Assembly: GCA_965204735.1 (NCBI GenBank)
Contig: OZ242008.1
Coordinates: 4,076,499 to 4,140,498 of the forward strand
Length of the DNA: 64,000 nucleotides
DNA from: Longimicrobiales bacterium
GTDB taxonomy: Bacteria; Gemmatimonadota; Gemmatimonadetes; Longimicrobiales; Gaopeijiaceae
Reading direction: 5' to 3'
Part shown: piece by piece, positions 1 through 64,000 of the stretch
Position numbering within the stretch: the first letter of the stretch is position 1
Layout: each line of letters begins with the position of its first letter
Made by a program: the position numbers

Positions 1-3000
1 CGGTCCCGCCCATCTCGTCCACGATCTCGGCGATCGTCTGGTGCATGTGGACGGCTTGCCGCAGCTCGTGGTCCGACCACTTCCAGTGGAAGCGCAGCAC
101 CGGAATGCCGTAGCGGTCCACGCGGTCGGGGTCGATCTCGCACCAGCAATCCTCGTTGGGGATCATCTCCCCTCGTCCGTCGAAGAAGAGGAAGCTCCCG
201 TAGTAGCGTCGGCAATCCTCCTTGAAGCGTCGGCCGTAGCTCCCGCCGGTCAGGGGCTCGACGCCGGAGAAGGCTCCGAAGCCGGGCATCCGCCGCCCGC
301 CGCCGAACTCGACGTGGTACCCACGGGGGAAGTCCAGCCGGCCCGCCAGCTGCTCGCCGTAGAGCCACCAGGGCATGTACATGTGCATCGCCGACGCGCC
401 GTCTTCGTTGTGAGGAGGCAGTCCCTCCAGCGCCGGGACGTGAGCCTGGAGACCCGCGCCCACCGTGTCCATCACGTACTTGCCCACCAGCCCCGAGGAG
501 TTGGCGAGCCCGTCGGGGAAGAGCCCGCTGGACGAGTTGAGGAGGATGCGGGCCGACTCGCAGGCGCTCGCCGCCAGCACCACGACCCGCGCCCCGACGA
601 ACTCGTCGGTCAGGGTGGCCTTCTCCACGTAGTGCACGCCGGTGGCCCGGCCCCGACCGTCCACCGCCACTTTCCGCACCATGGCGCCGGTGCGCACCTC
701 CAGGTTGCCCGTGGCCAGGGCGGGAGGCAGCAGCACCGTGGTGGACTGGAAGTTGGCGCGGATCGAGCAGCCCCGCCCGCACGGGGTCGCCCAGTAGCAG
801 GCGGCCCGGCCCCGCATCGAGTCGGCCACGACCCTCCGCGCCAGCGCGTTGTCGGGAAAGAGCTCGGCCGGCAGCGCGTCGGCGTCCTGGGTGCGAGTCA
901 GGATCGCCAAGTGGGCGGGGACGACCGGGATCCCCAGCCGACGGCAGGCCTTGCGCGTCAGGAGCTCGTAGGCGCGGGGCTTCGGCGGCGGCTGGAGGAC
1001 GCCGGGAGAAGAGTCGGGCGTGTTCTCCAGTCCTTCGTTGGAGCCGTAGACGCCGATCAACGCCTCGGTTCTGTCGTAGTACGGCGCCAAGTCCTCGTAG
1101 GAGATGGGCCAGTCGAAGCCGAGTCCGTCGCGGCTCCGCGGCTTGAAGTCGTACTCGCCCATGCGAAGGGAGATGCGGCCCCAGTGGTTGGTCCGCCCCC
1201 CGAGCATCCGCGAGCGCCACCACATGAACTCGGAGCCGTCGGCCACCGAGTAGGGCTCGCCGGGGACCTGCCAGCCCCCGTCCACCGTGGCGTCGTAGAA
1301 CCCGAAGGGCTTCTCCGGCGTGCCGGCGCCGCGCAACGGAGCGTCCTTCGGAAGCTGGAACATGGGGGTCTCCCGAAGGGGGTCGTAATGACGGCCCGCC
1401 TCCAGCATGACGACCCGCAGACCGGAGGCAGCAAGAACGAACGCGGCCATTCCGCCGCCGGCGCCCGACCCGACGACGACGGCGTCGTAGCGTTCCTGCC
1501 GCCGCCTCACGCGCTTCTAGCCGCCCCCGTCGTCGCCCGGCGGGGCAGGCGCCACCCGGTCGGCCCGGTAGGTGGGCACCTCGAAGACGTATGGGCTGGT
1601 GGGAGCGGCGGCCCGGAAGGCGCCCTCGTGCTCCATCAGGAAGAGAGACGCCACCTCGGCGCCGTCCGCGTCCACGGCCCGCACGCTGCGGTCGGCGCTC
1701 CCGTCGCCCGGCGGCTCCGCGTCTTCCGGCGCGAACCCCGTCGCCCGCAGGCCCGACAGCTCCTGCAGGATGTTGCGCACGGTGGTGGCGTCGGCCTCGT
1801 CGCCGCCCACCGTCCAGGTCGAGTCCTGGCCTTGGCGCTCGTACAGCGTCTCGACGCCGTCCCTGGTCACCCGGATGCCGACGACGACGGCGGTGTCGGC
1901 CCGGATCACGATCTTGTTCCGCCAATCCAGCAGGGAGCGCGTCGCCGCGGAGCGCAAGTCGCCGCGGATCAGGCTCGCCACGTCCTCGCCGGGGAGCCGC
2001 GCGTAGAAGGTGCGAAAGCGGGTGCCGGCCTTCCCCAGCAGCACCCGGAAGTCGTCGCCCACCTGGAGCGTCCAGGCGCTGTCCGCCTCCAGCCCCAGCC
2101 GCCGATGAGTCGCCGGGTTGGCGGCTGCCACCGAAGCGACTTCCACCTCGTCCAGCGCCCGCATCAGCCGCTCGACCGCTCCCGAGTCGGCCTCGAAGCC
2201 GTTGACCGTCCACTCGGTCCCTTCCCGGACGAGGCGGATCGTGTCCTGGGGACCGGCGACCTCCACGTCCGACACCAGCACCGGGTCGATCCCATCCAGT
2301 GCCGCCGCCAGGCCCGGGTCGCCGCCGGACGCGCCGCCGCCCCTGCCGCCCAGCACGACGGACAGCCCGTAGAGGACCGCCACCGACGCCAGGAAGTACA
2401 GAGACATCCTCAAGGTCTTCTCGCTCACGACTCGCCTCCTTCCCGCCACCGACGCTCCGCCCGCGCGCCTCGTCCGGTCACGCGAACGAAGCCGAAGACG
2501 ACGAATGCAAGGGGCACGCCCAGGAGCGAGCCCCACTTCAGGACGCCTTGGCCCAGCTCGGATTGGAAGACCAGGGCCGGAGGCTGCCGGTTCTTGGACC
2601 GGATCCCGATCAGGGCCTCGTCCTGAGCCAGCCAGTCCACCGCGTTGGCGGCGAAGGCCAAGTTCTGGGGGCTCGACTGGGCAAAGTGGTCCTCCATGAA
2701 CTGAGCGTCGCCCACGGCCACGATCCGTCCACCGGGCCTGGGGGCGTCTTCCCCCTCGTCGCCGCCTTCGCCCTCGGCGTCCGCGTTCTCTTCTTCGGCC
2801 AAGCCCGGGTCCACGGCCACCGCCAGGACCTGCACGCCCAGCTCCTCCTCCGTGAAGGGTATCTGAACGCTGGGGTCGATCATCCCTCCGCCAGGGCGCG
2901 CTCCTCCCGCCTCGGTCGTCGTCCACAGGGCGGCGATCGTCGGGTCGTCCTCCTCCCACCGGAAGGGGGCGGCCCACCCCAGCGTCAGGTTCTCAAGGTT

Positions 3001-63000: not shown

Positions 63001-64000
63001 CCCGTCTGCTGGCGCCCCCGTGGTCCACGCGGACCCCGTCCACGTAAAGGAGCGGCTGCGCGGGCACGGCTTCGGCTTCCCGCTCCACGCGGACTCCGTC
63101 GACGTACACGAGATCGGCCTCTCCCAGGGCAACGACGTCGTTGCCGACGATCCGAATCCTCGTCTTGGAGACCGCGTCCGCCCCGTTCTCGGCGTCCGTG
63201 GTCGCGGGGCTGGTCGCGTCCGTGGTCGCCTCTGCCGGAGTCGCCGCAACGGTGACCTCGACGTCCACGGCACTATCGGAGCCGCCGTTGGAGACAGGCG
63301 CGTCGCACGCGACCAGGGCGGCAAGGGCGACTCCCGCCAACAGGGTCCGGCGGGAGAAATCCAGGGTGCTCTTCTGCTCGGGCATGAGTCTCGGCCTCCG
63401 TGTTCTCGATTTCGGTGTCCCGACAGCGGCAACTACGGTAAGTGCCGTCGAAGGGGTTCGTCAAACTGGGCATCGCCCGGCGGCGGCGCGGGACGCTGCC
63501 CAGACGGCTCCGATGGCGCACCACTGGGGGTTCGTGGTGGTCCTGCGTGTCCAGACTTCGCCGACCGATGTCGGCGGGTGCGCCACCACAGGGCGAGCCG
63601 CACCGGGGACACCGCGATCACCGTGACGGGATAGGCGACCAGGACCGCCGTGATGGAGAAAGGCGAAGTGGATCGACAGGAACACCGTCTCGACCACGTA
63701 CAGCGCCGCCTTGGCCACGTGCTTCACGGCGACACGCACTCGCCGCAGACGGTCGCCCTCTTCGCCGCCCTCGGACTCGATCCGCGCCGCCGCCGTCTCG
63801 CCGCCGCTCGCGCACGACTCGCACTCGATGATGATTGTCGCCTCGGTCATGTCTCTCTCCATCTTCAGTCCGGGGAGCAGCCGACCGCCACCCCCTCGCA
63901 CACCACTACGCCGGTAAATGACCGGGGACGCACAGCTCCGTGGCCAGCCCCTGGGCCTCTGCCGCGTGCTCGTCCACGACGGGCCACCAGGCGGCACCGT

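Follow-up and report, generated by a model that had tools for sequence, protein, structure and literature searches.

How does a bacterium with a full-sized genome live with very few regulators? That regulator number grows quadratically with genome size is an old rule, and its cause is debated. Most genomes that fall far below it are small, and size and lifestyle are confounded in them. The initial annotation of a stretch of a Longimicrobiales genome suggested a different kind of outlier, with almost no nutrient-sensing regulators in 4.1 Mb. This interpretation is partly supported by our analysis.

The genome and the window

The genome (G000) is 4,140,498 bp in one contig, 98.15% complete and 1.95% contaminated, with 69.3% GC and about 90% coding sequence. 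It had been called a closed chromosome. The single contig, a GC skew whose sign flips near 1.9-2.0 Mb and a DnaA motif at 3.993 Mb are consistent with a whole chromosome, but the contig ends do not overlap and closure is unproven. A single 99-codon frame spans the end-to-start join, which is too weak as proof of circularity. Membership in Gemmatimonadota is shown by RpoB, for which a search listed at least 9 Gemmatimonadota among 80 loci. Placement in Longimicrobiales is inferred from PMC10581226, which in the part used here assigns host-associated MAGs to this order, and our RpoB tree has no named members of it.

The window, i.e. the entire 64-kb stretch that was analysed, is only a sample of a genome-wide finding (Table 1). 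Among its roughly 49 called genes are two DNA-binding regulators (Rex and Xre-IrrE); the remainder are mostly related to defence, mobility, uptake and catabolism. Rex is among the few global regulators that were kept. The defence and mobile island is the type of DNA that keeps this genome large, and the RecG-C/HTH protein is part of the defence island rather than a regulator of metabolism. The Xre-IrrE/ImmA regulator is carried on an island. The largest protein family of the genome, with 30 members, looks like the beta-propeller type seen in the window.

Table 1. Features of the 64-kb window (positions count from its first nucleotide)
Feature	Position	Strand	Evidence
Window: last 64 kb of the chromosome	1..64000	.	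Pfam on 48 ORFs, gene calls
TonB-dependent receptor, no local regulator adjoining	8575..11322	+	Pfam scan
Rex-type redox-sensing repressor	14837..15481 (start codon approximate)	-	Put_DNA-bind_N 9-56 and CoA_binding 85-182
Defence and mobile island: AAA_21 ATPases, Fic, GmrSD, RecG-C/HTH, transposase, Schlafen fragment	17372..37352	.	Pfam
RecG-C/HTH protein	34030..35346	-	Sole above-cut-off HTH_24 match genome-wide
Catabolic stretch: PQQ dehydrogenase, creatininase, hydrolases; served to probe the habitat, with near-identical DNA in sponge-metagenome runs	38436..48224	.	
Six-bladed beta-propeller protein	53993..55081	-	DUF5128 E 4e-5, confidence below cut-off level
Rpn/YhgA-like nuclease, 1 of 28 copies	59761..60807	-	Transposase_31; self-BLAST family
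Xre HTH fused to IrrE/ImmA-type peptidase	61060..62205	+	HTH_3 E 3e-14, Peptidase_M78 E 6e-15

Regulators absent and present

Profile searches of the genome found six response regulators (Response_reg), as previously counted, and five histidine kinases instead of the four reported (five HisKA matches at E<=1e-5 and five strong HATPase_c matches). There were no matches to TetR_N (E<=1e-3), to LysR HTH_1, LacI, IclR_C or AsnC, to P-II or GntR (E<=1e-5), to cNMP (E<=1e-9) or to Usp (E<=1e-12, the sole threshold). The two GerE matches both fall within ECF sigma factors, as had been stated, and no LuxR was found beyond them. All of these zero counts had been claimed before, and the controls are positive: each family was matched in 8-13 of 14 control genomes. 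Lineage HMMs, made from 12 TetR and 6 LysR sequences of relatives, matched none of the 42,987 six-frame ORFs at E<=1. Direct Pfam scans of 549 proteins likewise revealed no TetR, GntR, Crp, Usp or PII. Of 731 small soluble candidates, this census took in 549, and of the larger or membrane proteins only a selection; the other 182 small candidates were judged by eye and local phmmer. To the earlier list we add the absence of canonical Ser/Thr kinases (no Pkinase match) and of intact GGDEF domains (one partial copy, versus 10 in the family member G045).

The retained regulators include 20 Sigma70_r2 matches, against the roughly 18 sigma factors originally counted: 18 lie in called genes, one is frameshifted and one lacks a called gene. 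Sigma54 is present besides. We count about 36 transcription factors, or 1.2% of genes. The loss of signalling is real, but the phrase "almost no nutrient-sensing regulators" goes too far, since nutrient-linked regulators are still there, namely PhoB/PhoR/PhoU, ArgR, Fur, two DtxR, Rrf2, Rex and an Xre-PBP regulator that adjoins a molybdate-type binding protein. The genome further has two RsbW/STAS pairs, McsA/McsB-ClpC and HPr.

Seven AraC-type HTH matches were missing from the initial annotation. Five of them adjoin an ECF sigma factor or form a fusion with one, and these ECF-AraC modules are located in secreted-protein cassettes, away from core catabolic operons. By eye only, the AraC N-terminal domain resembles a degenerate receiver; an ESM Atlas search gave no usable match. 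A conserved PhoR-PstS fusion also occurs. In the open-access literature, we found no relevant report of either the ECF-AraC or the PhoR-PstS fusion.

Of the 24 matches to a broad winged-helix search (E<=0.3), one was above cut-off. The matches that we traced are sigma factors, known repressors, Xre proteins or transposases. Riboswitches have been proposed as substitutes for transcription factors in streamlined pelagic oligotrophs. No Rfam riboswitch reached the gathering score in 344 of the 4,140 kb, comprising the window and 14 loci that took in thiamine, riboflavin, Moco, purine and arginine genes; the window gave no Rfam match.

Comparison within the family

Our census covered 61 family genomes, whose habitats are not given by the data used; 18 that failed 90% completeness or 5% contamination were excluded from the quality comparison. 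Receivers number 2-14 in 14 of the 61 genomes and 26 to at least 62 in 47. On RpoB trees, which omit 11 genomes without a usable RpoB, seven sampled genomes of 2.5-4.5 Mb form a low-count clade (SH 99; SH-aLRT 97 in a second tree) to which G000 belongs. Six of the seven are single-contig.

We compared this clade with 18 good-quality family genomes of the same size. The clade has 5-9 receivers (median 45 in the same-size genomes), 3-5 HisKA (20.5), 0-1 Usp (5.5), no cNMP (3.5) and no Pkinase (10). TetR is absent from all seven, versus 1-11 copies in each of the 36 other good genomes (median 6.5 among those of the same size). On Galperin's index, where 74 transducers would score 100, G000 reaches about 12-27 and G045 at least 80. 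About nine in ten of the sensing proteins carried by its relatives are gone from the genome, which is still full-sized. This bears out the proposal that the loss occurred without genome shrinkage and is shared by related genera across the clade, but not by same-size relatives.

Not every absence is informative. Strong LysR matches are missing from 17 of 31 good-quality regulator-rich genomes, and GntR and PII from 8 of 31 each; an earlier remark had LysR and GntR scarce in a sister genome too. Profile searches of G045, itself regulator-rich, found no LacI, IclR or AsnC. We therefore rejected these six absences as a signal, since they mostly reflect family background. About half of the list of absent families carries no information.

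The sigma factors of G000 (20, versus a median of 18.5 in same-size relatives) are normal for the family in number, and those of the clade in density (4.4/Mb, versus 4.9/Mb outside). Because the density is not raised, we rejected compensation by sigma factors. That regulation rests on them is apt as a description of what remains, not of a replacement.

Origins of the loss

Four outgroup Gemmatimonadota have 37-71 receivers, so the low-count state is derived. L083, a genome within the clade, has 15 receivers, a point against the explanation favoured below. Its isolate label is known from sponge bins, but carries no weight as evidence here, and no paper that connects it with sponges was found. 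A single origin of all low-count genomes was rejected (AU p=2.6e-58) for a group of 13 rows, 12 low-count genomes and L083, that was picked from the counts themselves. Receiver loss recurs independently outside the clade. G005 is sister to G045 (SH-aLRT 99); joining it to the clade was not rejected (p=0.16). G025 (2.0 Mb, RpoB GC 44%) and G050 (2.7 Mb, 53%) lost receivers to an equal extent with no methyltransferase matches, so a host is not required for such loss.

What fills the genome

Sixteen proteins of more than 3,000 aa occupy 291 kb, and 485 genes below 65% GC occupy 484 kb, which amounts to about 0.8 Mb. Cadherin/Big_9 domains occur in both giant proteins scanned (n=2). Self-BLAST revealed 25 copies of an AAA_21-like family and 15 of a RecG-HTH-like family, beside the Rpn copies, and IS families are also present. 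The genome owes its size to giant proteins of the cadherin type, to mobile genes and to defence islands. It does not have the properties of a reduced endosymbiont genome (small, AT-rich, with loss of repair and biosynthesis); LexA, RecR, RuvAC, Fpg, purine and tryptophan genes are present. Nor is it that of a streamlined oligotroph (small, compact, low-GC, few mobile genes).

Habitat

DNA of G000 is present in 19 sequencing runs from eight studies. Four "sponge metagenome" runs have 0.60-0.63 of words in common with a probe that consists of G000 DNA only, and all sponge labels with such large shares come from one study. The sponge run X5 covers 30 of 30 bins of the catabolic stretch, and one near-identical 8.5-kb contig differs from G000 in 130 letters across about 8,060. 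Two runs with a word share of 0.72 carry no label beyond "marine metagenome", and four organisms are given as codes. None of the listed runs with this DNA is an RNA run, which is uninformative on expression.

The lifestyle is very probably sponge symbiosis. Besides its occurrence in sponge microbiomes and its depletion in signal transduction and transcription genes relative to its kin, the genome has 14 N6/N4 methyltransferase matches. The clade members have 2-14, against a median of 0 outside the clade and 0-3 in regulator-rich genomes on a single contig, and this expansion is an independent symbiont hallmark. The genome is rich in PIN, HEPN, HicAB, Phd and AbiEii proteins and has two CRISPR arrays; within this enrichment in restriction-modification, toxin-antitoxin and CRISPR, the comparison across genomes concerns methyltransferases only. 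The giant proteins correspond to host-interaction surface proteins. No flagellar or Che proteins were among the 549 Pfam-scanned proteins, and a motif search found no FlhA, MotB or MCP motif in the genome, although no search aimed at these families was made; PilM/PilN of the type IV pilus are present. Gene content suggests that the other six clade genomes and G005 may also be sponge-associated. A SUP-type polyketide synthase considered near the PPTase at 3.122 Mb is not at that locus, and a ketosynthase motif is absent across the whole genome.

Explanations for the loss

The sensing genes were probably shed by a sponge-dwelling lineage because its host niche is buffered and stable. A Gemmatimonadota lineage would have settled in the sponge and then lost most conditional sensing: two-component systems, Ser/Thr kinases, c-di-GMP and cNMP signalling, local regulators of the TetR, MarR and LuxR types, and Usp. 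Uptake and catabolic genes would probably be expressed largely constitutively. The circuits for homeostasis of phosphate, metals, Fe-S, redox and arginine and those for SOS and heat shock were kept, and so were sigma54, two partner-switching modules and the normal complement of ECF and alternative sigma factors. The genome did not shrink, probably because the DNA lost was made up for by genes with little need of regulation, i.e. giant cadherin/Ig surface proteins, restriction-modification, toxin-antitoxin, CRISPR, Rpn, IS elements, TonB receptors and propeller lipoproteins.

Alternatively, the loss could have come first, in a streamlined marine oligotrophic ancestor selected for lower regulatory cost. 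Association with the host, and regrowth of the genome through horizontally acquired DNA for defence and adhesins, would have followed only later, which would make the 4-Mb size secondary. Four of the seven clade genomes, including the longest, earliest-placed branches, are only 2.5-2.9 Mb, the giant proteins and low-GC genes could be such gained DNA, and G025 and G050 show the same loss independently without methyltransferases. Oligotrophs with reduced genomes carry few regulators, according to the part of PMC13198564 used here. However, GC stays high in the clade (60-68% in RpoB), unlike in streamlined relatives, the small clade members have the methyltransferase expansion too (2-8 matches), and the order of the long RpoB branches within the clade is unresolved. 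We regard this order of events as unlikely. It is more doubtful still that the missing families were replaced by transcription factors that escape recognition, by ECF-AraC modules, or by RNA elements, proteolysis or phase-variable DNA methylation. The ECF-AraC arrangements, the methyltransferases, the RsbW/STAS, McsA/McsB-ClpC and HPr proteins the many small proteins without a Pfam match and the 182 candidates judged by eye and phmmer could supply such substitutes. Yet sigma density is not raised, the traced matches of the winged-helix scan led back to types already known, the riboswitch scan of 344 kb was empty, the ECF-AraC modules are not at core catabolic operons, and sensors that are hard to miss (kinases, GGDEF, cNMP) are gone as well.

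An artefact of incomplete assembly, an insensitive six-frame search or fast divergence is highly improbable, and is already largely refuted. The clade branches are long, the genome search was prefiltered and the Usp and cNMP thresholds were strict, but the contig is single and nearly complete, and the result is repeated in the seven clade genomes. The positive controls, the empty lineage HMMs, the direct Pfam scans and the strong scores of the retained regulators also argue against it.

Tentatively, and with the odds against it, the loss of sensing in the sponge can be read further: a 4-Mb bacterium with a broad metabolism might be essentially open-loop, with about one-tenth of the sensors that scaling predicts. 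This state would have at least two origins in host-associated members, and some of the remaining sensors would have been merged into new fusions (a PhoR-PstS polyprotein with a cleavage site at a lipobox inside it; an ECF sigma-AraC protein). If so, regulator number would track niche variability, not gene number, and the family would offer natural replicates for testing this. The family provides single-contig genomes of equal size (3.7-5.2 Mb) with a roughly tenfold difference in sensors and independent losses, so niche and size become separable. This symbiont is predicted to react poorly when nutrients or stress change, a point of relevance to attempts at cultivation and to holobiont resilience.

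Relation to known systems

That sponge symbionts are depleted in genes for signalling and transcription is already published; the extremity of the loss and the phylogenetic control are new. As the direction of the effect was known, the surprise is limited. In the parts used here, Slaby et al. 2017 (PMC5649159) describe 37 sponge-symbiont genomes in which COG classes T, K, M and N are depleted, while genes for restriction-modification and toxin-antitoxin systems are enriched. Two Gemmatimonadetes among their Aplysina aerophoba bins (estimated 4.8 Mb, 67-68% GC) show no size reduction, like G000. However, the depletion is given there at the level of classes against chosen references, and those parts contain no family inventory, tree control or near-total loss. 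We found no relevant report on regulator loss in sponge Gemmatimonadota in the open-access literature, including the accessible parts of PMC11651109 and PMC10581226. By contrast, deep-sea sponge Thaumarchaeota are described as enriched in two-component and UspA genes (PMC9289680, in part), which counts against the sponge reading.

"Candidatus Synechococcus spongiarum" and "Ca. S. feldmannii" have fewer COG0642 kinases, COG0745 OmpR-type and COG0664 Crp-type regulators, losses that the sections of PMC4453008 and PMC6506613 used here ascribe to the stable host, with increased mobile DNA and CRISPR. These are genome-reduced cyanobacteria, whereas G000 has a family-normal 4.1 Mb and kept its sigma factors and partner switching. 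Signal transducers normally scale as the square of genome size, and organisms that live in stable niches, Mannheimia succiniciproducens (5 HK, 1 AC, 1 STYK) among them, lie far below, as set out in the relevant part of Galperin 2005 (PMC1183210). G000 has about as many transducers as M. succiniciproducens, but in 4.14 Mb. SAR11-type streamlined oligotrophs also have few regulators and lack PII (PMC3870248, PMC13198564, each in part), although their genomes are small and streamlined and that of G000 is large, GC-rich and island-filled. G025 and G050 are closer than G000 to this route.

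Regulator loss in a full-size genome

The loss of regulators in this genome is real, well supported and extreme, and is an instance of a trend described for sponge symbionts. The genome is a single contig of 4,140,498 bp (69.3% GC, one rRNA operon, 98.15% complete, 1.95% contaminated), placed by RpoB in the phylum Gemmatimonadota and probably of the order Longimicrobiales. Our own gene caller found 3,016 genes covering ~90% of it. The GC skew switches sign at about 1.9-2.0 Mb and there is a DnaA motif at 3.993 Mb, both of which a whole chromosome would show.

The initial annotation reported that many regulator families were absent, and six-frame searches of the whole genome again gave no matches to TetR, LysR, PII, GntR, cNMP, LacI, IclR or AsnC, or to Usp (tested only at E<=1e-12). 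TetR and LysR profiles built from relatives' own proteins had no match at E<=1 among 42,987 ORFs. The two GerE matches do lie in ECF sigma factors, as had been stated, and five weak MarR matches are other known proteins. The earlier count of six receivers stands, but there are five histidine kinases rather than four. Ser/Thr kinases and GGDEF proteins are two further lost layers, beyond those originally listed: no canonical Ser/Thr kinase was detected at E<=1e-25, the sole weaker match, in a protein of 1,359 aa, seems to belong to a defence locus, and GGDEF has one partial match.

Comparison within the family

Identical searches were run on 60 family genomes, and the 43 of 61 that were of good quality were retained. 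The same-size comparators were the 18 that measure 3.6-4.7 Mb and lie outside the low-regulator clade. The informative losses are receivers (6 versus a median of 45), HisKA (5 versus 20.5), TetR (0 versus 6.5; present in all 36 other good genomes), Usp (0 versus 5.5; absent in 4 of 61 genomes, each a clade member), Ser/Thr kinases (0 versus 10) and cNMP (0 versus 3.5). Because receiver and kinase counts of the richest genomes are lower bounds, the contrast is understated. The absences of LysR, GntR and PII are weak evidence, since 17, 8 and 8 of 31 regulator-rich genomes, respectively, also lack them; LacI, IclR and AsnC are also absent from the regulator-rich comparator G045 (five genomes tested). 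Across the family, the number of sigma-70 factors rises with genome size (Spearman 0.74), and this genome has a normal number (20 versus a median of 18.5). Therefore, they have survived and do not stand in for what was lost. By Galperin's index, as outlined in PMC1183210, which scores signal transducers against genome size, the 6-10 transducers give 12-27, a count that leaves out HD-GYP and covers MCP, EAL and cyclases through motif searches only; an index of 100 needs 74, and the figure for G045 is at least 80.

Two RpoB trees (50 genomes plus 12 named rows, and 31 rows), limited by being based on one gene and by long branches, unite our genome with G055, G018, G048, G053, G054, G057 and the named record L083 (support 99 and 97). 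The seven genomes have 5-9 receivers each at 2.5-4.5 Mb, versus the same-size median of 45, which bears out the claim that related genera share the loss while same-size relatives do not; the L083 genome has 15. Given that four outgroup Gemmatimonadota have 37-71 receivers, the low state is a loss. Further low-count genomes fall outside the clade, and a single origin of all of them was rejected (p=2.6e-58). Both G025 and G050 have small genomes and a low GC content in RpoB. G005 (3.7 Mb, six receivers) groups with G045, although its union with the clade is allowed (p=0.16). G045 has 44 Ser/Thr kinase and 10 GGDEF matches, against 1 and 0 in G005, its sister in the RpoB tree.

Retained regulators and fusion proteins

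About 29 non-sigma regulators remain: two OmpR-type regulators, three sigma54 activators, seven AraC-type HTH matches, Fur, two DtxR, Rrf2, Rex, two LexA, ArgR, MraZ, BlaI, PadR, one ArsR-like, two MerR-like, NrdR, an Xre-PBP protein and a putative HrcA called from a motif. The list derives from Pfam scans of 549 of 731 non-redundant soluble proteins (55-310 aa, positions 7 kb to 3.148 Mb), local phmmer and inspection by eye for the other 182, and selective scans of larger candidates; NrdR and one MerR were called by eye. To these are added about seven Xre proteins located in islands and several antitoxins, for a total of roughly 36 transcription factors (1.2% of genes). The genome also encodes sigma54, two RsbW/STAS pairs, a receiver-PP2C protein, DksA and HPr. 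Judging by this list, the sensing of phosphate, arginine, metals, Fe-S and redox state survives, and substrate-specific and environmental sensing is missing. The claim of almost no nutrient-sensing regulators thus holds for substrate-specific sensing, but not for phosphate, arginine and metals. A search for an ammonium-transporter motif gave no match, which fits the loss of PII. In the Xre-PBP protein, probably an oxyanion-sensing regulator, an Xre HTH is joined to a domain resembling periplasmic binding proteins.

One frame runs from a PhoR histidine kinase through a variable linker with a hydrophobic lipobox to a phosphate-binding PstS. Among the best 120 homolog clusters, 21 are fusions of this kind (875-995 aa, 55-98% identity), including this genome's own cluster. 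The lipobox pattern recurs in 20 of these 21 clusters and a linker methionine in just 3, a sequence pattern that suggests either a tethered sensor or a polyprotein, possibly cleaved by signal peptidase II. Five of the seven AraC-type matches adjoin or are fused to an ECF sigma factor, and the 467-aa fusion has three further full-length clusters (80-81% identity). These modules, which several times adjoin propeller-type lipoprotein genes, also occur in G055 and G005, with a similar single frame in G005; none of the eight AraC genes in G045 is near an ECF sigma factor. We found no published description of either fusion in the open-access literature.

Locations of features (L, locus with coordinates within it)
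Feature	Location	Remark
PhoR-PstS fusion	contig 1,267,239-1,269,923 (L239:3404-6085)	minus strand; between phoB and pst genes
ECF sigma-AraC fusion, 467 aa	L335:394-1794, contig 222,230-223,633	
ECF sigma + AraC pairs	contig 194.4k, 3,441k, 3,791k, 4,015k; L322, L324, L334	3,441k copy frameshifted
Xre-PBP protein	L300:17270-18436	directly before molybdate-type solute-binding protein
Giant proteins	contig-wide, e.g. L283:15279-19997, L273:4639-15000	
Type I-E cas genes, second cas2	L270-L271, contig 2,071-2,103 kb	with both CRISPR arrays
LPD38 polyvalent-protein domain gene; 1,423-aa Sacsin/ResIII helicase	window 50203-52518; 55255-59526	second island
Cox-type molybdoenzyme genes	L215:2120-3997	
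Urease cluster	contig 3,744-3,749 kb	read by eye
Two creatininases	window 41867-42811; L240:4-777	
tRNA array	contig 279,122-281,107	17 genes within 2 kb
S6-S18 frame	L285:12270-13106	279 aa
Ubiquitin-like system	L303:11640-12817	

Habitat and possible explanations

A 9.8-kb probe of the genome's DNA was found in 19 runs from 8 studies. Its word share was 0.60-0.63 in four 'sponge metagenome' runs, all of one study, and 0.72 in two 'marine metagenome' runs; the remaining runs are coded or small. A sponge run covered all bins of the probe, with one 8.5-kb contig ~98% identical. DNA methyltransferases, an independent symbiont hallmark, agree with a sponge habitat: there are 14 here, 2-14 in the clade and 5 in G005, versus 0-3 in single-contig regulator-rich relatives and none in G025 and G050. 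Gene content suggests a sponge association for the other six clade genomes and G005 as well.

This kind of depletion is already known from sponge symbionts. Slaby et al. describe 37 sponge bins, among them two Gemmatimonadetes bins of 4.8 Mb, as depleted in COG T and K and enriched in restriction-modification (PMC5649159). Sponge Synechococcus differ in the same direction, having smaller numbers of kinases and of OmpR and Crp proteins (PMC4453008, PMC6506613), whereas deep-sea sponge Thaumarchaeota are described with the opposite trend (PMC9289680). The accessible parts of two Gemmatimonadota surveys do not discuss such loss, and our search of open-access main texts found no paper on it in sponge Gemmatimonadota. 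What appears to be new is how extreme the loss is in a genome of full size, the control at family level and the fact that it arose repeatedly.

The account that we consider most likely, with reasonable though not high confidence, is that the lineage moved into a buffered host niche, where conditional sensing would no longer pay and would be lost, while defence and adhesion DNA would build up; constitutive expression is its prediction. It is rather unlikely that the regulators were lost earlier in a streamlined oligotroph whose genome later re-expanded. Somewhat less probable still is that unrecognised factors, RNAs or methylation have taken over control; no riboswitch was found in the 344 kb of the 4.14-Mb genome that were scanned. 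That the loss is an artefact is very improbable.

Genome size and other gene content

Sixteen proteins above 3,000 aa (3,400-13,300 aa) take up 291 kb, and the two of them that were scanned have cadherin and bacterial Ig domains. A further feature is 485 genes below 65% GC (484 kb). Among the largest paralog families are 30 propeller-like lipoproteins, 28 Rpn nucleases, 25 AAA_21 ATPases and 15 RecG-HTH proteins, and there are two CRISPR arrays (about 56 and 39 repeats). Such filler would explain why the genome kept its size, and the window, which is the final 64 kb of the contig, holds the same mix. Without filler, about 3.3 Mb is left, which is still far too big for six receivers by family standards.

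One third of all tRNA genes lie in the tRNA array. A single open frame encodes both ribosomal proteins S6 and S18, which may reflect a real fusion or a lost stop codon. In the ubiquitin-like system, a Prokaryotic E2 family E gene adjoins a multi-ubiquitin gene.
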